Origin: a virus | Strand: one strand, 5' to 3' | Length of the DNA stretch: 44,568 nt | Virus genome (UHGV): UHGV-0171754 | In this document: one piece after another, positions 5,768 to 40,419 of the stretch | How the letters are laid out: every line of letters begins with the position of its first letter | Position numbering within the stretch: position 1 is the first letter of the stretch | Position numbers and translations under genes: made by a program | Notes under the pieces: generated by a model | What the model was told of the DNA's origin: nothing | The model's database searches: none | The model's input: only the letters and a program-made list of their open reading frames with translations

Positions 5768-5857
5768 GCTATCCCCCTGGGATTGTGGCAAAGCGGGCCA
5801 CCCGCTTGACTTCACGCCTTAATATTATCAGCGATAAAAATAATCGCAAAATTCGCT

Positions 5858-5902
5858 TGCACTGCGGGAATTGGTTGCGCTATATTGGTTGCACACCAAC
5901 AA
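5858..5902 (+). promoter_or_regulatory. Sigma70-like promoter (TTGCAC-18-TATATT) with two TTGGTTGC octamers and a TTGGT-N5-ACCAA palindrome over the start site
   Basis: -35 at 5858-5863, -10 at 5884-5889, octamers at 5874-5881 and 5888-5895, palindrome at 5888-5902; near-identical to the leader at 15946-15960. Confidence 0.5.
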
Positions 5903-5915
5903 TGAGGACATAAAA

Positions 5916-6680
5916 ATGAGACTGACGAAAGACATTAAAAATCAGATCCTAGCTAACATCCTGCGCGACCACGAAATCGCTACCGAAGCCAAAACAATCA
6001 TGATGGACTCTCGCGACCTGGCGTACGCAATCACGCTGGACTGTATGCCGGACGGCATTCGCACATTCGCCGCGCTACGCGAGCATATCAAGGCAATCCG
6101 CGATGACCAGTCGCAGATGTACGGCGTCAGCGTATACACCAACAAGGCGACGTATAGTTATAACACCGACCGCCCGAAGGGTATCGGCAGCGTTTACGAC
6201 GCCACCTTTGAAATCAACGCAGGCGGAAATGTTCGCACCTTGTCCTTGAGCGGTGACGGTCGCCAATACCGCGTACATCGCGGATACTGGGAAGAGAAAT
6301 ATATGAATAAGCTCTCGCCTGATCTCGGCGATATCGTTCCGGGGTTCGAGACAGTTATGCTCGCGTCAGTGTGCGAAGTGGACGAGGAAGGGAAAGCGCT
6401 GCCGATATATCTCCCACGCGGTCGCGCAGACTACCCGGCGGACCATGACTTCTGTAAGCGCCTGGACCGCAACGACAAGGCACGTCGCGAGTTGCGTGCG
6501 AAGTATGACGCGTTCAAACTCACCGTTACCGGTGTACTGGACCTGCACAATACTGACAAGAAGCTGATTAAAGCATGGCCTGAAGTTGAGCAATTCATCC
6601 CATACCCGGACAAGCCAAAATCCACGGCGGTGGCGCTGGATGTGAAAACACTCAACGAGATTTGCGGCATTCCTCGCTAA
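5916..6680 (+). CDS. Hypothetical protein (254 aa), opposite-strand insertion in the morphogenesis module
   Basis: ATG (MRLTKDIKNQ) with GAGGA RBS 7 nt upstream; own promoter and a bidirectional terminator; no recognisable motif. Confidence 0.7.
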   Translation: MRLTKDIKNQILANILRDHEIATEAKTIMMDSRDLAYAITLDCMPDGIRTFAALREHIKAIRDDQSQMYGVSVYTNKATYSYNTDRPKGIGSVYDATFEINAGGNVRTLSLSGDGRQYRVHRGYWEEKYMNKLSPDLGDIVPGFETVMLASVCEVDEEGKALPIYLPRGRADYPADHDFCKRLDRNDKARRELRAKYDAFKLTVTGVLDLHNTDKKLIKAWPEVEQFIPYPDKPKSTAVALDVKTLNEICGIPR

Positions 6681-12957: not shown

Positions 12958-13020
12958 ATTTAATTAATTCCTGATTAGTGTACTGGGGACAATATATCAT
13001 GGGACTTATTGAGGCGGGCA

Positions 13021-15160: not shown

Positions 15161-15349
15161 TTAACATTTCTCGGCCTCCAGAAATACCCCATGCTTGCGT
15201 ATAAACTTGCGCACGTTATGCGGGCGCATATCACAACGGCAGCGCTTAATAGCCCATACCTGCGGCCCGTAACGATAACTGACCCGCTCTTCGGCGATCC
15301 ACTCCGCAAGCTCGGAGTCCGTCACCTGGTCGCTTAGTCGAATCATCAT
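15161..15349 (-). CDS. Small hypothetical protein (62 aa)
   Basis: ATG overlaps upstream stop (ATGA); GGAGA RBS. Confidence 0.45.
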   Translation of the reverse strand: MMIRLSDQVTDSELAEWIAEERVSYRYGPQVWAIKRCRCDMRPHNVRKFIRKHGVFLEAEKC

Positions 15350-15615
15350 TTGCTCAGTCTCCAGTGTTTGCCTACCCGCTCAACGGCGGGCTTCCGGCGT
15401 AATGTAATACGAATACCCATTGGTTGCAAGGAGGTCCGCACCCTGAAATCGTGTTGTGCTGCGAACTGGTGCAAGTAACGAGTCTGCGTCAGTGGCTTCA
15501 CGTCATCGCGATAGCACCAGAACACAGAATCGCCCTCAGTCGCATTCTTAGCCCATATTCGTATGCAATGCAGGGGAATATGCCACGAAAGCTGTTTTGC
15601 GCGTCTACGGCTCAT
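15346..15615 (-). CDS. Small basic hypothetical protein (89 aa)
   Basis: AAGGGG RBS 5 nt before ATG; basic N-terminus. Confidence 0.5.
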   Translation of the reverse strand: MSRRRAKQLSWHIPLHCIRIWAKNATEGDSVFWCYRDDVKPLTQTRYLHQFAAQHDFRVRTSLQPMGIRITLRRKPAVERVGKHWRLSK

Positions 15616-15945: not shown

Positions 15946-15995
15946 TTGGTGTGCAACCAATATATCAGGGTGCCAGGCGGGGCGCAACCAATATT
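15946..15995 (-). promoter_or_regulatory. Promoter with extended -10 (TGaTATATT), two TTGGTTGC octamers and TTGGT-N5-ACCAA operator
   Basis: Minus-strand reading attggttgcgccccgcctggcaccctgatatattggttgcacaccaacatgagga ATG; leader nearly identical to 5884-5910. Confidence 0.5.
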
Positions 15996-16145
15996 AATCA
16001 CGCGCATGAAAAAGTCGATCGCTATCTGCTGCAACTGCAAACCGCATTTTTCACCCCCCATTCTGCAACTTGCATTGGTTGCCTAGTTCAGCGACGACCG
16101 CAATCCGCAACATGCTGCCGTGTATTTTGCAATCCTGGATTTTAT

Positions 16146-16198: not shown

Positions 16199-16305
16199 GT
16201 GCTGTCCCGCTGTCCCGCTCCTCCCCAGGCCGCGTCATCCGGGGCGGGACAGGGGTGCTGTCCCGCTTTGTCCCGCCTCCTGTTTGTCCCGCTTTTTGTC
16301 CCGCT
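16199..16305. repeat. Element B: array of 7 GTCCCGC / GCGGGAC heptamers, homologous to window positions about 80-150
   Basis: Copies at 16204-16210, 16212-16218, 16245-16251(rc), 16259-16265, 16270-16276, 16285-16291, 16298-16304; block gggacaggggtgctgtcccgc...tttttgtcccg shared with element A. Confidence 0.8.
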
Positions 16306-16349
16306 TACTTTATGCAGTTTTATTGCATAACTATTCACTATATTTACAC

Positions 16350-16471
16350 TACACGGCAACCAATGCGACCAGCTAAAAACACTCAAAATGGCAACCAATG
16401 CGCGCAAAATTTAATCTCTTAGCGATATGGGAATTCCCATACCGGCAACCAATGCGCGCAAAATTTAATCT
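16350..16471. repeat. Iteron-like direct repeats (28 bp x2 plus one partial copy) with a 16 bp perfect palindrome between them
   Basis: ggcaaccaatgcgcgcaaaatttaatct at 16390-16417 and 16444-16471, partial copy ggcaaccaatgcg at 16354-16366; palindrome tatgggaattcccata at 16426-16441; the last repeat overlaps the 3' end of the primase gene. Confidence 0.75.
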
Positions 16472-18735
16472 TTCAGGTCGTCATCGGTCGCCGAAAGCGT
16501 GATGGGTATATTCGTTTTGATGACGATATTCGACGACCCATAGATGGCCCCAGTGTGCGGATCTGTATAAAAACCGAGTACGCCGCGCTCGACCATATCG
16601 TCGATTGCCTTCGTCGATGTGCCACCTTTCGCGAGTCCGGCCTGGCGGACAATTGCCGATTTACTGAATCCAGTATGGTCCGGGTTATCTTCCATCAGTT
16701 TTTCCAGGGCCGCATAAAGCACTTTCTCTTTTTCGTTGCGCGGTCCGGCGGTGTTCTCTTCCTTAACCGCGGCCTTGCCTGCTGCCTTCGCCTGTTCTAT
16801 AGCGAACGGTGCCAGGGCAACCGGTACGAGGTAGAGAGTCTCGTCGCGAGGCGTGGAGGCAATCGGCTTGACGTCCCATCCGGCAACCACGTCGCCGAAG
16901 TCTGGCCCAGTGCTGGTGGACTGGTGCGCCTCGAACGCTTCTGACTTGCGGAGATCTACCTTCACCTTGCACTTGAGCAGGACGAAGCCGCGCGGCGCTT
17001 GCTTGATGCCGTTACGTGACTTCTCATGATACAGGTTCAATTGCCCGGGCTGGTTGTCGTCCGGCTGTTCCAGGAAGAACGCTGAATCGACAGCACCATG
17101 CAGCGCGCCGGACCCGCGTGGGGTTCTGCTGCCGTTTGCACCCTTCGCCGGGTGGTGGATGACGCCCGCACTGCCACCTGTATTTTCCGCAATGGCTTTC
17201 AGCGCTTTGACCACTTCACCCATATCGCTGGCGTTGTTCTCGTCAAACGGTTTAGCATCGGCGGACCGCAGCGCAACAGTCTGGTTGAGTGAGTCGAACG
17301 CCACCAGGCCAACAGGTTCACCGTTAGCGGTGCGATTGATGAAGCTGATAACTTCACGCAAGCCGGACTTGCTTGTGATATCCCAGCCGCGTGATTGCAG
17401 GTCGATAATGTGCAGCTTGTCCAGGTCGTGCTCGTATTTAATCTGCAATGCTTCTTTGCGCTGGTTGGAGGCTTCGCCACCTTCCGCGTCGAAATAGAAG
17501 CAATGAGACTGGACGACCTTCGCACCGCCAAACGGAATACCGGCGGCAACCGCGCCCATCTGCCCAAGCACATAGAAAGACTTACCGATATTCGACTCGC
17601 CAGCCATGTACCAGGTCGATTTAAAGTTAATCAACCCCTCGATGATCGGGTCGTGCTTACTGAACAGCGCAACCGGCTCGTTATCCAGATCCGCATCGGT
17701 GCACACGCCGTATTCTTCGCCGTCGCCAACCGCATCAACAATATGTTCATAGCACGACTCCACTTCCTCGTCGTCCAGCCCCGGAAGGATGGCGGCGATT
17801 TGCTTACGGGACATATTGTGTGGCTCGACGTTCAGGTGGTCCGGGATCCCGATAAGACGTAGCGCCAGGTGCTGGTGTCTGTTCAGTTCCGAGCAACACT
17901 CGTTTCCGGTGTGCATACACTTGAAACGGATCTCGCCATCCTTAACCATTATGGCGGTGGACCCTTCGCCGCTGTGCAGATGTTCGTTCGGGCACGGCAC
18001 CTCATAACCACGCCCGGACGACAGTGGTTCGAATCCTGCCTGGAAGCACCAGTCCAGAATGCCGTCCGCCACTTCGTCGTCTCCCTTGGTTAGTTCGCGG
18101 CGTACTTCCTCTTTATCCACCCCCAGCTTATCCGCCAGGCGAAGCAGACGACGGACGCGGGCACGTTTGCCGTAATGACACTTTATTACAGACTGCTGGT
18201 GTGGCAGGTACATCAGGCGGTTTGTGTCTTTCGTGCAATCGTCGAAGTCCACATCTGACAGACCCAGTTGGGCTAACAGGGCATACTGGGCGCGTCCCAG
18301 GTCTTCAGCCGGTACAGGCTTGTCCGTCAACACCAGGAAGCGAGCGCAACGTGTTCCACCTTTCAGTGGGTGACGGTCGCCGGTTGTGGTGTGAAATACG
18401 TGTTCAAGACCCGCGTCAATGAACGCCTTACGGCAGCGGCGTAGGGTGCGGGTGTCGGTGCGGTCAATATCGAAGAACAGGATCGAGCGGTCCACCGCAC
18501 TGGTCTTACGACGCAATCCGTCACTGGTATACGCCACGATGCCGTCGGCCTTACGCTTGCGGCGCGCATACTCGGCTTTATCTTCCGTCTTGTTGATATG
18601 CACCGAGGAGATTTCTTTCGCATCATTGATAAATTCGAAAAACTCTTCGGTAGTCATCTGGAAGTTTTCCGCCCTGGCTTTTTCGCCTTTTTTAGCGGGT
18701 CTTGTTACGGCGAATTTAATTAAACTCATGGTCAT
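16465..18735 (-). CDS. DNA primase/helicase (N-terminal primase-like domain, Cys cluster, C-terminal RecA-like P-loop ATPase)
   Basis: 756 aa; Walker A AGESNIGKS; Cys cluster CPNEHLHSGEGSTAIMVKDGEIRFKCMHTGNEC. Confidence 0.7.
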   Translation of the reverse strand: MTMSLIKFAVTRPAKKGEKARAENFQMTTEEFFEFINDAKEISSVHINKTEDKAEYARRKRKADGIVAYTSDGLRRKTSAVDRSILFFDIDRTDTRTLRRCRKAFIDAGLEHVFHTTTGDRHPLKGGTRCARFLVLTDKPVPAEDLGRAQYALLAQLGLSDVDFDDCTKDTNRLMYLPHQQSVIKCHYGKRARVRRLLRLADKLGVDKEEVRRELTKGDDEVADGILDWCFQAGFEPLSSGRGYEVPCPNEHLHSGEGSTAIMVKDGEIRFKCMHTGNECCSELNRHQHLALRLIGIPDHLNVEPHNMSRKQIAAILPGLDDEEVESCYEHIVDAVGDGEEYGVCTDADLDNEPVALFSKHDPIIEGLINFKSTWYMAGESNIGKSFYVLGQMGAVAAGIPFGGAKVVQSHCFYFDAEGGEASNQRKEALQIKYEHDLDKLHIIDLQSRGWDITSKSGLREVISFINRTANGEPVGLVAFDSLNQTVALRSADAKPFDENNASDMGEVVKALKAIAENTGGSAGVIHHPAKGANGSRTPRGSGALHGAVDSAFFLEQPDDNQPGQLNLYHEKSRNGIKQAPRGFVLLKCKVKVDLRKSEAFEAHQSTSTGPDFGDVVAGWDVKPIASTPRDETLYLVPVALAPFAIEQAKAAGKAAVKEENTAGPRNEKEKVLYAALEKLMEDNPDHTGFSKSAIVRQAGLAKGGTSTKAIDDMVERGVLGFYTDPHTGAIYGSSNIVIKTNIPITLSATDDDLKD

Positions 18736-18739
18736 AGCC

Positions 18740-19069
18740 TTATTTGGAAGTTTTATTATTGCGTACCCAGGAGCGCACTGTGCTCTGATTAATTCCGGTC
18801 AACTCGGCAATCATCGCCCAAGATTTGCCCTCGGCGCGCAAACGGATAACCTGTTTTTTGTATTCTTCCATTTCTTCATTGTGCTTCTGCAGCTTGCTCG
18901 CCGCCGTACCGTTGAGCAATTCCAGCCTGGCGCGCAATTCTTTTTCGGTAAGTCGCAGACGTTCGATTTCAAATAGCACCGCACCCACGGCATCGGTATA
19001 CGCCCATGACCGGCTTGTCTCACTGCAAACAGTCTTCGTTAACATTTCGATTGCGTCGTTTACATTCAT
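18740..19069 (-). CDS. Transcriptional regulator with C-terminal HTH
   Basis: 109 aa; GAGGG RBS; C-terminal GKSWAMIAELTGINQSTVRSWV is helix-turn-helix-like; coiled-coil centre. Confidence 0.55.
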   Translation of the reverse strand: MNVNDAIEMLTKTVCSETSRSWAYTDAVGAVLFEIERLRLTEKELRARLELLNGTAASKLQKHNEEMEEYKKQVIRLRAEGKSWAMIAELTGINQSTVRSWVRNNKTSK

Positions 19070-19083
19070 TGCTCTGCCCTCAG

Positions 19084-19129
19084 TTGGTTAATGACCAACG
19101 AAACTACACCTAAAACCGCAAGGTGTCAA
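19084..19129 (-). promoter_or_regulatory. Leftward early promoter (TTGACA-17-TAGTTT) with TTGGT-N5-ACCAA operator in the leader
   Basis: -35 = rc of 19124-19129, -10 = rc of 19101-19106, palindrome ttggttaatgaccaa at 19084-19098 between -10 and RBS. Confidence 0.45.
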
Positions 19130-19245: not shown

Positions 19246-19275
19246 TTGACACCCATCCTGCAACCAATCTATTAT
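19246..19275 (+). promoter_or_regulatory. Rightward early promoter (TTGACA-18-TATTAT) with GCAACCAA octamer in the spacer
   Basis: -35 at 19246-19251, -10 at 19270-19275, octamer at 19260-19267; about 195 nt leader before first ATG. Confidence 0.5.
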
Positions 19276-19471
19276 TCACCCCGTCGACAGGATGCAGGAC
19301 GCAAACTGGAGAGGGGCAACGCAGGGGCCGGATCGAAGTGTCAGGATTCCCAACCGTGATTATATAACCTGGTCCACTACCCGAAAGGGAGAACGCGCAA
19401 CCAGGCAATATGTTAAGGCCACCGACGAAGTTAACTGCCGACACCTAAACTTAACCAATCGGAGATATACC

Positions 19472-21930: not shown

Positions 21931-22105
21931 AGTATTTGCGATCTTATTGATGTTTTTGCTCGGCGCGCTGGGCTTTATCCTGCATTGCGTGCAAGGCGTG
22001 TTAATGGTGGCGTGGATTGCGAGACATGGCGACCGACCGCCGTTAAGCTGGGTCGAGAACACCATCTACTATGTGACCAGAAATCTTTTTAATGAAAATG
22101 CTTGA
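21923..22105 (+). CDS. Small membrane protein (60 aa)
   Basis: Hydrophobic N-terminus (VFAILLMFLLGALGFIL); GAGGA RBS; overlaps upstream stop. Confidence 0.4.
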   Translation: MNKVFAILLMFLLGALGFILHCVQGVLMVAWIARHGDRPPLSWVENTIYYVTRNLFNENA

Positions 22106-22137
22106 CCGCTTAGGCGCAACCAAGTAGATTAGCAACC
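22102..22137 (+). promoter_or_regulatory. Candidate promoter (TTGACC-17-TAGATT) with two GCAACCAA octamers
   Basis: -35 at 22102-22107, -10 at 22125-22130, octamers at 22116-22123 and 22130-22137. Confidence 0.4.
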
Positions 22138-22195
22138 AAGCCGAACGGGGTGGCTCATAATAACCCCGATACATGTGAGAATGAGGAATTGGAAA

Positions 22196-26099: not shown

Positions 26100-26374
26100 C
26101 ACCAGAAGGCAAGATCCAAAGTCACCTTATGAAGTTGGTTAAAGCCGTAGGCGGATTCTGCCGTAAAGTGGCATGGGAGGGGCGCGCGGGTGCGCCCGAT
26201 CTGATTATCATCATCAACGGCAAAATAGTGTTCGTCGAAGTGAAGCGCCCAGGCGGCAAACCGAAGCCGCACCAGATACGAGAACATGAGCGAATGGCCC
26301 GCCGCGGTGCGGACGTTCGCGTTATCGACAACATAGCAGACTGTGATTTATTGGTTGCTGAGTTGGTCGCGTAG
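26096..26374 (+). CDS. VRR-NUC domain nuclease
   Basis: 92 aa; PDLIIIINGKIVFVEVKRPGGKPKPHQ signature; start overlaps upstream stop (ATGA). Confidence 0.65.
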   Translation: MTPEGKIQSHLMKLVKAVGGFCRKVAWEGRAGAPDLIIIINGKIVFVEVKRPGGKPKPHQIREHERMARRGADVRVIDNIADCDLLVAELVA

Positions 26375-26414
26375 CGGTATAGTGGGCCGGTTAGCACTAT
26401 CGAGGATTTTAGAA

Positions 26415-26631: not shown

Positions 26632-26850
26632 ATGAAAGAACATTATCGACTCACCACACTGGGCGAATGCAAACCAGGCGATCGCGTATGGTTTATCGCG
26701 GGCATGAATAACCCGCTGCCGTTAACGGTGTGCTGGCAAAAATTTAATAGCTTCCGGGCGACGGGTGTACACATCGGACACAGCACCAACTATGACGCCA
26801 CAAAAAGGAACTGGAACAGTGAAACCGAAGTCTGGAAAAAGGCGGAATAA
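26632..26850 (+). CDS. Small hypothetical protein (72 aa)
   Basis: ATG (MKEHYRLTTL) with GGAGA RBS. Confidence 0.4.
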   Translation: MKEHYRLTTLGECKPGDRVWFIAGMNNPLPLTVCWQKFNSFRATGVHIGHSTNYDATKRNWNSETEVWKKAE

Positions 26851-29291: not shown

Positions 29292-29296
29292 ATTGG

Positions 29297-29325
29297 TTGC
29301 ATAACCGTATTGGTTGCATTATATT
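29297..29325 (+). promoter_or_regulatory. Candidate promoter (TTGCAT-17-TATATT) with two direct TTGGTTGC octamers
   Basis: Octamers at 29295-29302 and 29310-29317; second ends 2 nt before the -10, same spacing as at 5874/5884 and 31235/31245. Confidence 0.45.
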
Positions 29326-29372
29326 GAGGGTGTCCGGTTTGGACGCCCTTTTTAATACCCGGAGACAGTGAT

Positions 29373-29624
29373 ATGAAATCATTATTTTTCGACTACGACG
29401 GCGACCTTCGATTTTGGGTGCTCCTCACCCTCATGATTGCCGTTTGTGTTTGCGTACCTGCCGCTGGTGTCGCGGGTGCCTACTACTCGGAACGCTACGA
29501 ATGCCGGACTGTGTACGCAGAGCAAACAGGTCGCAACACCCAATGGCGCTATGGTGTCTGCTGGTTAGAGATGGACGGCAAATTTATCCCCCGCGATGAA
29601 ATCCGCACTACGGAGACTAAATAG
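29373..29624 (+). CDS. Small membrane protein (83 aa)
   Basis: GGAGA RBS; hydrophobic segment WVLLTLMIAVCVCVPAAGVAGAYY. Confidence 0.5.
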   Translation: MKSLFFDYDGDLRFWVLLTLMIAVCVCVPAAGVAGAYYSERYECRTVYAEQTGRNTQWRYGVCWLEMDGKFIPRDEIRTTETK

Positions 29625-30766: not shown

Positions 30767-31233
30767 AATTACTGATTTGCGATTTGGATGGCGTTATTAA
30801 CGGTTCAAGCGATGCGCGTGCCGACCTGGTGCCTGGGATAAAAACTAAATCCACCTTTTGGGCGAAGTGGCACAAGGCGCACGTCCGCGAAGATCTGAAC
30901 ATGGATATGCTGCCGCTGCTGACCATGTACAAAGAGCAAGGCTTCGAAATCGCGTATCTGACCAACCGGCAGCGGGAATGCTGGGAAACCACCGCCGAAC
31001 AACTGGAAGTATTCCCGACAGGCCGGTTGTTTATGCGCCACATGCTGGACGATACCCCGCCGCCAGAGTTTAAGGCGTGCGCCGTGTTCAAAATGGTCTG
31101 CTATGCGGACGTGTCGGAACTGGTCATCATTGAAGATTGCGAGAAGAACATCGCGGCAATTCGTCGGGCGTGTGGCGATTTGGTCCCGAAAATTTACGCA
31201 ATAAACGTTGCAAAATTCACTTGCAACCAATAG
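30763..31233 (+). CDS. HAD-superfamily phosphatase-like protein (possible nucleotidase)
   Basis: 156 aa; N-terminal LICDLDGVIN resembles the HAD motif I (DxDG). Confidence 0.45.
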   Translation: MKLLICDLDGVINGSSDARADLVPGIKTKSTFWAKWHKAHVREDLNMDMLPLLTMYKEQGFEIAYLTNRQRECWETTAEQLEVFPTGRLFMRHMLDDTPPPEFKACAVFKMVCYADVSELVIIEDCEKNIAAIRRACGDLVPKIYAINVAKFTCNQ

Positions 31234-31250
31234 GTTGGTTGCAGTATCTT
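31221..31250 (+). promoter_or_regulatory. Candidate promoter (TTGCAA-18-TATCTT) containing inverted octamer pair TTGCAACCAA-tagg-TTGGTTGCA
   Basis: Perfect inverted repeat at 31222-31244 spanning the -35 and spacer. Confidence 0.4.
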
Positions 31251-31296: not shown

Positions 31297-31851
31297 GTGA
31301 AAGCATACGAATACTGCAAAAATGCCGCCACCACTATGGAACAGCGCGGGAAAGAAAACGGCTATGACAACGCAAAAGAAGAACGCAGCGCGAAACAAAT
31401 CGCTGCCGTATTTAACGCGCTTACCGGTCGCGACCTTACCGAGCAAGAAGCCTGGACCTTCCTGATCTGCCTGAAGCTGGTGCGCCAGCACCGTAAGCAC
31501 CAAGAAGATAATATCGTGGACCTGGTGGCGTATGCCGCCCTGCTGGGCGAATCTTACATGACCGTGCATGACGAAATTCAGATCGATACAACGGCAGCGC
31601 AATTTGAAAGCCTCAAAGGGCTGTCCGTGCGTCTTGACGGCGAGATTAATGCGTATAACAGCGCAATTCGCGTTGCAGAAGATACGGTGGCCTCGTTCGG
31701 CAAGACTGTTAAGGCACGCGATTTTGGGGTCGTAGCCCAGGACGTCCAGCCTATGGTCGTGCTCACCGGCGAAGACGGGTCGAAAATCTGCATGACGCAG
31801 GAAGATTTCCGCAACATGGAAAAAACACTGGTGACTGGTGCACTTAAATAA
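31297..31851 (+). CDS. Hypothetical protein (184 aa)
   Basis: GTG start with AAGGG RBS; no confident motif. Confidence 0.45.
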   Translation: MKAYEYCKNAATTMEQRGKENGYDNAKEERSAKQIAAVFNALTGRDLTEQEAWTFLICLKLVRQHRKHQEDNIVDLVAYAALLGESYMTVHDEIQIDTTAAQFESLKGLSVRLDGEINAYNSAIRVAEDTVASFGKTVKARDFGVVAQDVQPMVVLTGEDGSKICMTQEDFRNMEKTLVTGALK

Positions 31852-34339: not shown

Positions 34340-34371
34340 TTGGTTGCATTCGTGATTGAGCGGTGTAATAC
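34340..34371 (+). promoter_or_regulatory. Candidate promoter (TTGCAT-16-TAATAC) with TTGGTTGC octamer for the lipoprotein gene
   Basis: Octamer at 34340-34347; -10 at 34366-34371. Confidence 0.4.
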
Positions 34372-34403
34372 TAAAACTCAACCAAATATAGGGGGATGAT
34401 ACC

Positions 34404-34622
34404 ATGAAAACTTTAATTATGATTTGTGCGGTTCTTCTGTCGGGTTGTGCCAACATGCCGACTAAAGTCTGCGACGCGACATATGTTAATAGCGGCATGG
34501 AATACTCGGTCCCGGTGTTTGGGGTTGCCGACTTTAGTGGACACAAAATGATCAAGGCTGGGTATCCGTTCAACTTCCAGTATGTGTCGGTCGACCACTT
34601 CAAAAGCACAACCTGCAAATAA
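34404..34622 (+). CDS. Small lipoprotein (72 aa), opposite-strand insertion next to the tail fiber gene; candidate superinfection-exclusion protein
   Basis: Signal peptide with lipobox MKTLIMICAVLLSGC; AGGGGGA RBS; own promoter and terminator hairpin. Confidence 0.65.
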   Translation: MKTLIMICAVLLSGCANMPTKVCDATYVNSGMEYSVPVFGVADFSGHKMIKAGYPFNFQYVSVDHFKSTTCK

Positions 34623-39074: not shown

Positions 39075-39688
39075 TCGTTCAAGTCCTCGGTTACGATTCC
39101 GGCTGAAATAATAGCGCCGCCGATCTCACGCTCGCCCCATAATACACCAAGCGCCGTGCCTTGCGCGGTCGTGTTTACAGGCCCGCCGAACGCGTACGAC
39201 GCTTTGTTATCCACGTCCTGCCTTGTCTGCAATCCTTTCGGTTGCGGCGATAGCAATTGCATAACGCCACCCAGCGCCATCGACATCCCGAACGAAAACG
39301 TCGCCGTCCCGATAGCGGCAGCGGTCGCCGCCGAAGCCCCGAAAGCGGCAGTAGCAAGCCCGCCAGTATAGAACGACGCCACTACGATCGCGACACCCGC
39401 CAGCAATTGACCCAATCCTCTTTTTGCGCCAGTCATAACCGGCGCGATGGTAACGACGCGGTTGCCGTGGAACTCGCCAAGCTCATCATAACCGGTCATT
39501 GTGTGATTACCCTTGCGCACCTTGAACATCATGTTGTCCAGGTGGGCGGACATTAAAAAGTCTTGTAACCCTGGCAACTTCACACACAAGCCGGTGATTC
39601 CTTCGCCCGGTGTGAAGCAGTCCAGCTTATGCACTTTACCGAATCGACGCCCTAAGACGCCGTACAATTTAAACGTTGTCATTGCCAT
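39071..39688 (-). CDS. Tail assembly protein (gpI-like)
   Basis: 205 aa; Gly/Ala-rich hydrophobic C-terminal half; position between K-like and J-like genes. Confidence 0.65.
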   Translation of the reverse strand: MAMTTFKLYGVLGRRFGKVHKLDCFTPGEGITGLCVKLPGLQDFLMSAHLDNMMFKVRKGNHTMTGYDELGEFHGNRVVTIAPVMTGAKRGLGQLLAGVAIVVASFYTGGLATAAFGASAATAAAIGTATFSFGMSMALGGVMQLLSPQPKGLQTRQDVDNKASYAFGGPVNTTAQGTALGVLWGEREIGGAIISAGIVTEDLNE

Positions 39689-40419
39689 TCTGTGATATTC
39701 CCCGGTAGGTCTTTATGACGGACCCATTTAACCACATTGTCGCGGAAAAATCCTGCCCGGAAGGGGACCACGCTCGACAGACTGCCGTAGATATGGTGTA
39801 GGAGTTGGTTGCCAGGAAGGAATATCCCGGCGTGGTTAGGCACTGGCGCGCTAATCTGCATGATGACCATCGCCCCCGGCGTATTCTCCTCGCATTCCCT
39901 GAAGCCAGCGCCGTACCAGTTATCCATATACAGATTTTCGCCTGTCTCCCACCAATTATACGGCACGCGGAAGTCTGGCAGGTTTACACCCTGCTTTTTG
40001 TGCCATGCCATTACGAGGCCATAGCAATCCGTAATTCCGAGGACAAATCGGCGACCTACCAGCGGCGGGTCTTCCGGGTCAATCTCAATAAAGTCGCCAT
40101 ATTCGTTAGTGATGGTCCACACTACGCCGCTGCCGTTGCATCCGTTAACGTCGCCCAGTGAGGGGGTTAACTCGCGCTGACCCGGGTGTGAGTGGACTAC
40201 GCGCACGACGTCGCCCATATCCTCGGCATCCATCCAGGCCATATCACTAATCGTAAAAGCGTCTTTGCGGGAGCGCACGCCGGTCGGGTCTTCGAATACG
40301 TTCAGACATGGGACGAACACTTGCTTACGACCCACCATGACAACCAGGCCACAGGCTTCTTCCGGCAGACACGCCGCGACGTGTGCGGCGATATCGCTTT
40401 TAACCTTTTTCGTTAACAT
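39679..40419 (-). CDS. Tail tip assembly protein (gpK-like, JAB/MPN plus NlpC/P60-like)
   Basis: 246 aa; HSHPG-containing segment VVRVVHSHPG and conserved Cys/His downstream. Confidence 0.7.
   Translation of the reverse strand: MLTKKVKSDIAAHVAACLPEEACGLVVMVGRKQVFVPCLNVFEDPTGVRSRKDAFTISDMAWMDAEDMGDVVRVVHSHPGQRELTPSLGDVNGCNGSGVVWTITNEYGDFIEIDPEDPPLVGRRFVLGITDCYGLVMAWHKKQGVNLPDFRVPYNWWETGENLYMDNWYGAGFRECEENTPGAMVIMQISAPVPNHAGIFLPGNQLLHHIYGSLSSVVPFRAGFFRDNVVKWVRHKDLPGNITEWQ

Follow-up and report, generated by a model that had tools for sequence, protein, structure and literature searches.

A strongly selected asymmetric box at early promoters and beside the probable replication origin of a Dhillonvirus genome: a putative operator-like site

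At positions 29293-29317 of the virus genome UHGV-0171754, two direct copies of the octamer TTGGTTGC stand just upstream of a predicted -10 hexamer, and the same octamer or its reverse form GCAACCAA recurs in other gaps between genes. The question raised by this locus is whether the octamer is simply a piece of promoter sequence or a site that is read by a protein, and, in the latter case, by which one; the original prediction had opted for a regulator or nucleoid-protein site rather than a core -35 element. The stretch of DNA analysed, referred to here as the window (44,568 bp), is a complete Dhillonvirus genome, i.e., that of a virulent E. coli siphophage like HK578 and SO-1. Judging from sequence comparisons, the octamer is the core of a real and strongly selected regulatory box that spans several genera and is of the kind of the phage operator and box systems. 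A protein-recognition role, as an operator-like site for a trans-acting regulator, is its best reading.

On both strands together the octamer was found in 19 exact copies, compared to 2.03 +/- 1.37 (maximum 6) in 100 dinucleotide-preserving shuffles, in line with the roughly tenfold enrichment originally proposed. The copies start at 5871, 5885, 15420, 16075, 26351, 29293, 29310, 31235, 34340 and 39805 on the plus strand and at 15953, 15984, 16356, 16391, 16445, 19260, 22116, 22132 and 31223 on the minus strand. The list first made by eye was correct to within 0-6 nt and had overlooked those at 15420, 26351 and 39805, while the direct pairs 29293/29310 and 5871/5885 and the inverted pair 31223/31235 were confirmed. 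The claim that most copies occupy intergenic promoter DNA was also borne out: 15 of the 19 are wholly non-coding, in a genome with only 3,165 non-coding bases (7.1%; binomial P = 2e-14), and a comparable frequency inside genes is clearly not seen, the density in coding DNA being 49-fold lower. The copies at 26351 and 31223 cover the final bases of a gene, within the promoter of the next gene, which leaves only two deep inside genes, both antisense to the gene that contains them. One (15420-15427, plus strand, in gene 15346-15615) is kept in relatives and may be coding-driven; the other (39805-39812, plus strand, in tail gene 39679-40419) is probably incidental.

The sequence requirement appears to be strict. 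Variants with one mismatch were not enriched (39 observed, about 40 expected), and no 9-mer of the genome is more over-represented than ATTGGTTGC, which has 15 copies. The octamer is preceded by A at position -1 in 15 of the 19 copies and followed by a base other than T at position +8, which indicates an asymmetric site of about 10 bp as the actual unit, with the consensus A-TTGGTTGC-(A/C/G) over 9-10 bases.

Thirteen of the 19 copies are located in promoters, at positions set relative to the -10 hexamer. Eight predicted promoters of early genes, replication genes and morons carry boxes at three fixed positions with respect to a sigma-70-type -10. At position I (-39 to -32) the box starts 27 nt before the -10, and its TTGC forms the first four bases of the -35; at position II (-22 to -15) it lies in the spacer, followed by 1-2 nt and then the -10; at position III (-8 to -1) it covers the discriminator and start site and overlaps the last two T of TATATT. 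Over 164 sites in 11 sequences, the offsets from box start to -10 start are +27, +10 and -4, and the 27-nt distance is exact in four promoters of the window and in their orthologs. The spacings of 17, 14 and 31 bp seen between paired boxes follow from the differences between these positions. All three fall within the footprint of RNA polymerase, and they are the only three places within a minimal promoter into which a site of 9-10 bp fits.

The flagged site, promoter P29297 (29293-29355, plus strand), combines positions I and II in front of the gene that begins at 29373. The forward box at 29293-29300 gives the -35 TTGCAT (29297-29302), a second forward box occupies 29310-29317, and the -10 TATATT follows at 29320-29325. 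It overlaps a strong, conserved intrinsic terminator (29326-29355), which consists of a hairpin with a 10-bp stem (29326-29350) and a T-run; the 5' arm starts one base after the -10, and the predicted start site falls within this arm. The RNA fold of the terminator (-17.6 kcal/mol, z = -5.2) shows compensatory changes in LM40P1. With such an overlap, read-through transcripts would terminate, and transcripts from P29297 itself would lack the 5' arm, an arrangement to be expected if a genuine promoter is fitted into a compact genome.

Four further promoters of the window have forward boxes only. P5850 (5857-5892, plus strand; positions II and III), supported by the alignment of six genomes, its sequence context and its offsets, drives the moron 5916-6680 and consists of the -35 TTGCAC (5857-5862), a forward box (5871-5878), the -10 TATATT (5881-5886) and another forward box (5885-5892). 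P15990 (15953-15991, minus strand; positions I and III) drives the leftward genes from 15930. Its forward box at 15991-15984 supplies the TTGC with which the -35 TTGCGC begins, a 17-nt spacer leads to the extended -10 TGATATATT (15967-15959), and a second forward box (15960-15953) lies over the start-site region. Within these two otherwise unrelated promoters, the 17-mer TTGGTTGCACACCAACA is identical (5885-5901, plus strand, and 15960-15944, minus strand) in all six genomes compared; it holds the inverted repeat TTGGT-N5-ACCAA, the same type of palindrome as TTGGTcattAACCAA at 19098-19084. P26355 (26351-26383, plus strand; position I and a variant box), located within the 3' end of the VRR-NUC gene, precedes a Lar-like gene. 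Its forward box (26351-26358) gives the -35 TTGCTG, and its variant box TTGGTCGC (26363-26370), kept in six genomes and in the relative L261, is followed by the -10 TATAGT (26378-26383). P34344 (34340-34372, plus strand; position I), identified from its context and the alignment of relatives, serves the cor moron with one forward box (34340-34347, giving the -35 TTGCAT) and the -10 AATACT (34367-34372).

The remaining three promoters contain reverse boxes. P19246 (19246-19275, plus strand) heads the early rightward operon and scored 11/12 in the promoter scan: TTGACA (19246-19251) and TATTAT (19270-19275) are separated by an 18-nt spacer with a reverse box GCAACCAA at position II (19260-19267), and the HK578 record annotates a promoter at the equivalent place. 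Just downstream of it, a 52-bp stretch (19308-19359) matches several T1-like phages (Drexlerviridae) at 92-94%, at unannotated places; these phages otherwise share no DNA with the window, and the stretch may be a shared leader or regulatory element. P22102 (22102-22139, plus strand), in front of the gene for the single-stranded DNA-binding protein, has TTGACC (22102-22107), a 17-nt spacer with a reverse box (22116-22123), TAGATT (22125-22130) and a second reverse box at the start site (22132-22139). Finally, P31221 (31221-31250, plus strand; gene 31297-31851) has a reverse box (31223-31230), read as the -35 TTGCAA (31221-31226), a forward box at position II (31235-31242) and the -10 TATCTT (31245-31250), which is TATAGT in relatives; its two boxes form a 10-bp hairpin. 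The proposal that the octamer often ends about 2 nt before a TATATT-like -10 thus holds for part of the set, namely the copies at 5871, 29310, 31235, 19260 (reverse) and 22116 (reverse, 1 nt).

The orientation of the box is related to the type of promoter, as examined over 12 genomes or loci. A forward box in the spacer was found in 16 distinct promoter sequences, all with a TTGCxx-type -35 (mostly TTGCAx) that matches TTGACA at 3-5 of six bases, and a reverse box in the spacer in 11 distinct bona fide promoters, all with a TTGACx -35 that matches at 5-6 of six. Promoters with a forward box at -39 have a poor -35 (TTGCxx, 3-4 of six) but good -10 hexamers. A different picture is provided by extended -10 elements (TGnTAnnnT with at least 5/6 matches to TATAAT), all of which are found on the minus strand, that of the late genes (44530, 15967, 14283, 12999 and 11763). 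Except for 15967, which belongs to P15990 and has two boxes, they are without a box, which suggests a separate class of late promoters; those at 12999 and 11763 (TGTTATAAT) come directly after terminator hairpins and before the metallophosphatase and small terminase genes. There seem to be three kinds of promoters, namely those with a consensus -35 and reverse boxes, those with a weak TTGCAx -35 and forward boxes, and box-free late promoters with an extended -10.

At the canonical 17-18 bp from the -10, boxes overlap the -35 in P15990, P26355, P29297, P31221 and P34344. Since these five promoters share TTGC or TTGCAA with the box, box and core promoter are interwoven rather than separate. A definition of the octamer as a -35 fits the copies at 15984, 26351, 29293, 31223 (as TTGCAA) and 34340, but not the 14 others, which lie in spacers, at start sites, in reverse orientation, in the cluster described below or in coding DNA. 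Constraint does not follow the hexamer either: the ATTG 5' of it is as invariant as its start, and its last two bases vary. Spacer and start-site boxes were also considered as the -35 of a second, downstream promoter, and by eye no -10 was found at the right distance.

Conservation singles out the box itself. Five other Dhillonviruses carry 17-23 copies each, compared to about 1.3 expected, and in an alignment of six genomes 105 of 120 box columns (88%) are invariant, compared to 493 of the 782 remaining intergenic columns (63%; Fisher P = 2e-8), while the bases between paired boxes vary freely. In LM40P1, two single-box promoters have become of the I + II type (P34344 there has gained a spacer box), and these second boxes are, from the alignment, independent gains. 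In metagenomic relatives that share less than 1.5% of 15-mers with the window and have protein identities of 37-84%, ATTGGTTGC is still the top 9-mer, located in the corresponding promoters and behind the helicase-primase gene. This provides strong evidence of selection on the box itself.

The box also extends beyond Dhillonvirus. Edwardsiella phage eiAU-183 (Eiauvirus) has 19 copies (1.2 expected), nine of which are in the gap after its helicase-primase gene, together with an I + III promoter pair before gp21 and one box before the gene for the single-stranded DNA-binding protein. In Serratia phages Otaku and Tsm2 (Guernseyvirinae), the octamer occurs 12 times (1.1 expected), and four of these copies are crowded into the final 190 nt that encode the helicase-primase, i.e., its C-terminal region (26646-26767 in Otaku, L268; 9373-9494 in Tsm2, L272). 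These four are read in two reading frames (codons ATN, SNQ, RNQ and ATK) and are kept in both phages despite changes around them; the use of two frames points to selection on DNA and not on the encoded peptide. The core is preceded by A in Dhillonvirus and by G in eiAU-183 and Otaku. Other relatives with the same replication module are poor in boxes: Salmonella phage SE1, a Jerseyvirus and Bas71 have 1-3 copies, without enrichment. T1 has eight copies, most of which appear to be in coding sequence. In an IMG/VR scan for paired boxes, the matches beyond Dhillonvirus-like contigs and one distant relative were 9-bp tandem coding repeats in unrelated viruses and were discarded.

A dedicated DNA-binding factor fits these data better than a plain -35, because the box is used in both orientations, at three promoter positions and in clusters that lack a -10, and because its ATTGG is invariant and mismatches are not tolerated; the proposed separation from the core -35 stands in part only, five boxes being interwoven with it. 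A nucleoid protein, also proposed originally, is unlikely, as the specificity for the octamer is too strict. We consider it somewhat probable that the box is the putative recognition site of an early-made DNA-binding protein that controls early and middle sigma-70 promoters and is also bound beside the origin. Once bound, the protein would occlude RNA polymerase, most clearly at the near-consensus TTGACx promoters with reverse spacer boxes (P19246 and P22102), and these promoters would be shut off as it accumulates. The box-free late promoters with an extended -10 would stay active, so that expression would switch from early to late. A forward box at -39, in contrast, might help to recruit polymerase to the weak TTGCAx promoters, with one protein repressing one promoter class and supporting the other. 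As one possibility, P29297, P15990 and P5850 might be activated first and then repressed as the protein concentration rises, in the way known from lambda PRM. The box cluster beside the helicase-primase gene may reflect a second role of the protein, at the origin, like the one that DnaA boxes serve.

Several points weigh against this proposal. The promoters are predictions from matches to the sigma-70 consensus, and the early, middle and late classes were assigned from gene content and promoter type only. P29297, P15990 and P5850 mix putative activating and repressing positions in the same orientation, and a simple rule by which forward boxes activate and reverse boxes repress fails to explain them. 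Moreover, each of the candidate binders considered (a 109-aa helix-turn-helix (HTH) protein, the helicase-primase and a host factor) has evidence against it. No homolog of the 109-aa protein was detected in eiAU-183, Otaku or Tsm2 by tblastn or by a profile search of all six-frame open reading frames. The helicase-primase is 45-47% identical across the box-bearing lineages and 44% in the box-free SE1, and its C-terminal segment, which by eye looks like a winged helix, is poorly conserved (27-61% identity).

Among known systems, those that the box appears to match best in its way of working are DnaA boxes and the asymmetric operator/stoperator sites of mycobacteriophage L5. With DnaA boxes (9-bp asymmetric TTATCCACA) it has in common a short asymmetric sequence with a strongly conserved core, use in either orientation, an origin-like cluster beside a replication gene, and single or paired copies in promoters, which in the case of DnaA regulate transcription. 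In contrast, its sequence is unrelated, promoters hold most of its copies, at set distances from the -10, and no AAA+ initiator with a domain IV of the DnaA type turned up in the phage. The stoperators of L5 and other cluster A phages are 13-bp asymmetric sites of the repressor gp71, a monomeric HTH binder; they number about 20-30, are oriented uniformly with transcription and block elongation in the prophage. Here too, many copies of one asymmetric site occupy short intergenic regions of a siphophage genome, and sites of one class overlap with an early promoter at its -35. Unlike stoperators, the boxes occur in both orientations and inside core promoters, in a virulent group of phages and with no immunity repressor or integrase seen.

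The binder is, on balance, probably a phage protein. Part of this expectation falls to the 109-aa protein, a possible though doubtful binder in Dhillonvirus (18740-19069, minus strand), which is the first gene of a short leftward operon (19069 to 16465) that continues with the helicase-primase gene. Its C-terminal HTH matches the Pfam families HTH_23, HTH_28 and Sigma70_r4_2, and no other early protein has a DNA-binding domain that could be recognised in Pfam and PHROGs scans of 30 early and small open reading frames, which gave no informative match for the other early ones. In all 24 clusters residues 49-106 are nearly invariant, whereas unrelated sequences have several times taken the place of the N-terminal 45 residues. 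Members of the family are restricted to Dhillonvirus-like phages, where the gene always lies directly upstream of that for the helicase-primase. The predicted structure is a long helix followed by the HTH (mean predicted local distance difference test score 83). A sequence search of the PDB and a fold search matched the protein only to generic HTH domains of the IstA, LuxR/GerE and resolvase types, none of them significantly. The promoter of this gene (19084-19129, minus strand) consists of TTGACA (19129-19124), a 17-nt spacer, TAGTTT (19106-19101) and the palindrome TTGGTcattAACCAA (19098-19084), a degenerate box. Distant relatives have an exact reverse box GCAACCAA about 9 nt after the -10 of this promoter, and a box behind the start of the HTH gene fits a putative autoregulated box-binding protein. 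As for the helicase-primase (gene 16465-18735, minus strand), the alternative candidate, no segment is specific to box-bearing genomes, only 13 scattered columns. Phylogenetic profiling of all 61 window proteins left only a Dam-family methyltransferase that tracks the box. This was set aside, as an enzyme of 161 aa would not be expected to read 8-10 bp and the adenines of the box are on one strand only.

That the sites belong to a conserved protein of the Enterobacterales hosts, and are used by phages in the way DnaA, IHF or Fis sites are used, is the alternative that survives best, unlikely as we judge it. It would account for a core that is identical in phages of Escherichia, Shigella and Sodalis, of Edwardsiella and of Serratia, while the small regulators encoded beside the helicase-primase gene differ by lineage: at the position of the 109-aa HTH_23-like protein, eiAU-183, Otaku and Tsm2 have Cro/C1-type HTH proteins with different recognition helices, and no phage DNA-binding protein is specifically common to the box-bearing genomes. 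Yet the E. coli sites compared (those of DnaA, IHF, Fis, CRP, FNR, OmpR, CytR, PdhR/UxuR and sigma-54, and the phage CII site in addition) do not fit, and we know of no E. coli factor with this site. The lineage-specific base before the core, A in Dhillonvirus and G in eiAU-183 and Otaku, points to lineage-specific binders instead, and the related box-poor phages of E. coli and Salmonella have the same replication module without the box. A search for paired boxes in 185,579 bacterial genomes was uninformative on the host question, as the 120 matches listed were taxonomically scattered, consistent with chance, and included no enterobacterial regulatory locus. Overall, a host protein as the binder would come as something of a surprise. 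It is also rather improbable that a single protein, either a host factor without a described site or a missed small phage protein, reads the box both at the origin and at early promoters in at least three lineages, namely Dhillonvirus, Eiauvirus and the Tsm2/Otaku-like Guernseyvirinae of Serratia.

Two of the sites that were compared and did not fit deserve a closer description. The CytR operator is an octamer, GTTGCATT, arranged as direct or inverted copies with variable spacing. Many promoter-type boxes similarly contain GTTGCA(T/A), in both orientations and at variable spacing, but the 3' ATT of the CytR site is unconserved (position +8 is A, C or G, with A in 9 of 19, later positions are unconstrained, and the cluster copies described below read TTGGTTGCC), the invariant 5' ATTG falls outside the CytR site, and no CRP sites flank the boxes. 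A sigma-54 promoter (TGGCAC-N5-TTGCW) has GG and GC 10 bp apart, compared to 2 bp within the box and 14-21 bp between paired boxes.

Another explanation, of which we are similarly sceptical, takes the box as a positive promoter element like the MotA box of T4, at which a phage factor bound to the forward box would replace a weak -35 contact and steer host polymerase towards delayed-early and middle promoters, repression being secondary or absent. MotA and AsiA appropriate sigma at a box of one orientation that is centred around -30, 11-13 bp upstream of the -10. Both systems have a phage-specific asymmetric box of about 9 bp that substitutes for a good -35, with an ordinary sigma-70 -10 further downstream, and the combination of poor -35 and good -10 at promoters with a forward box at -39, the exact 27-nt distance and the similarity of the 109-aa protein to sigma-70 region 4 are all consistent with such a role. 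However, the box of the window is at -39 to -32 (centre about -35.5) and is also found at -22 to -15, at -8 to -1 and in reverse; an activator bound in either orientation at the spacer or start site could make no productive contact with polymerase. Furthermore, the strongest consensus promoters carry boxes too, there are box clusters without a promoter, and the Pfam and PHROGs scans of the 30 early and small open reading frames gave no match to MotA or AsiA (which might miss remote homologs). The sites of lambda CII and P22 C1, TTGC-N6-TTGC flanking the -35 of pRE, pI and paQ, likewise place TTGC at the -35 of promoters with a weak -35. They differ from the boxes, whose start-to-start spacings of 12, 14, 16, 17 and 31 bp never give TTGC-N6-TTGC, whose TTGC tetrads are 8-13 nt apart, which can stand singly, which are units of 9-10 bp and which occur without a lysogeny module. 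What the MotA and CII systems have in common with the box is only a phage-specific element that stands in for a weak -35.

The boxes outside promoters lead to the 534-bp, repeat-rich gap downstream of the helicase-primase gene (region B), which is probably the replication origin. Its left edge is formed by three direct copies, GCATTGGTTGCC (16452-16445, 16398-16391 and 16363-16356, minus strand), right after the helicase-primase stop codon, and a single inverted box (16075-16082, plus strand) stands on the other side; the flank of the latter, CGCATTGGTTGCC, matches the three direct copies and is invariant in six genomes. No convincing -10 was found for the region B boxes. A second repeat, GCGGGACA/TGTCCCGC, occurs 18 times in the genome (1.9 expected), with seven copies in region B (16203-16304) and eight at 40-297, between the tail-chaperone and tape-measure genes. 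The GenBank record of SO-1 annotates the equivalents of both stretches as a repeat region and possible origin.

These features invite the explanation that the box is a replication iteron of the initiator (the helicase-primase or a partner), its promoter copies coupling transcription to initiator level, to which we would also assign a low probability. In all three lineages the densest cluster indeed coincides with the 3' end of the helicase-primase gene or directly follows it (3-4 boxes in Dhillonvirus, as three direct copies and one inverted, nine in eiAU-183 and four in Otaku/Tsm2), adjoining lineage-specific repeats and AT-rich DNA; the SO-1 annotation and the winged-helix-like C-terminal segment of the helicase-primase agree with this. 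Against it, 13 of the 19 window copies are not in the origin region but in promoters, at places set by the -10, the putative DNA-binding domain of the helicase-primase varies while the box is invariant, and the lineages do not agree in how the cluster is oriented with respect to the gene.

As side observations on this region, the repeat found at the place of region B apparently differs between phages (GGTGCCAC-like in distant relatives and TTCCGCACA in Otaku) with the TTGGTTGC box unchanged. A AGTGAATAGTTATGCA element (about 16322-16340, minus strand) adjoins the box cluster and is conserved at equivalent places in L262, L264, L261 and eiAU-183; its TTATGCA core resembles the DnaA box TTATNCACA at 7-8 of 9 positions.

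The weakest explanation, that no extra factor exists and the octamer is a favoured TTG-rich -35 core sequence spread by duplication of promoter modules (the overlap with the -35 at canonical spacing in five promoters agrees with it, and the 17-mer shared by P5850 and P15990 suggests such a duplication), is very improbable, because the ATTGG half is invariant outside the -35 hexamer, copies occur in spacers, at start sites, in reverse and in clusters lacking a -10, the sequence between boxes diverges while the boxes do not and are gained independently, and Otaku keeps four coding copies in two reading frames. The absence of any dedicated factor can hardly be maintained.

With regard to the genome as a whole, 158 phage records match a 4-kb segment of the window at 80-95% identity, YD-2008.s being the best, and UAE_MI-01, the annotation of which was carried over by tblastn to obtain the gene map, is collinear with a 25-kb segment. 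The minus strand encodes structural, lysis and packaging genes, and the plus strand from about 19.3 to 32.5 kb the replication and early block. The late region additionally contains two morons on the plus strand, 5916-6680 and cor (superinfection exclusion; 34404-34622). The annotations of relatives contain no integrase or immunity module, in a phage group that is virulent, and Rfam gave no RNA family in the window. In the openly readable full text on the motif, or on promoters and transcriptomes of Dhillonvirus, HK578 and SO-1, nothing was found on this motif, and neither the genome paper of YD-2008.s nor the eiAU paper mentions promoters or repeats.

Dhillonviruses are common E. coli phages that are used in studies of defence systems, in the BASEL collection and in phage therapy work. 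The box provides a testable map of their transcription programme, with eight early or middle promoters, a box-free class of late promoters with an extended -10 and a probable origin. As a specific probe for the regulator, ATTGGTTGCA can be used. The promoter architecture may in addition guide the insertion of payload genes and the choice of their likely timing, for which cor and the moron 5916-6680 are natural examples. Since phages of four host genera, with differing small regulators, share an identical box, its binder could be a new host protein or a new phage regulator. If a single protein did read it in all three lineages, this would be a DnaA-like coupling of replication and transcription that has survived the replacement of the phages' own Cro-like and HTH regulators.

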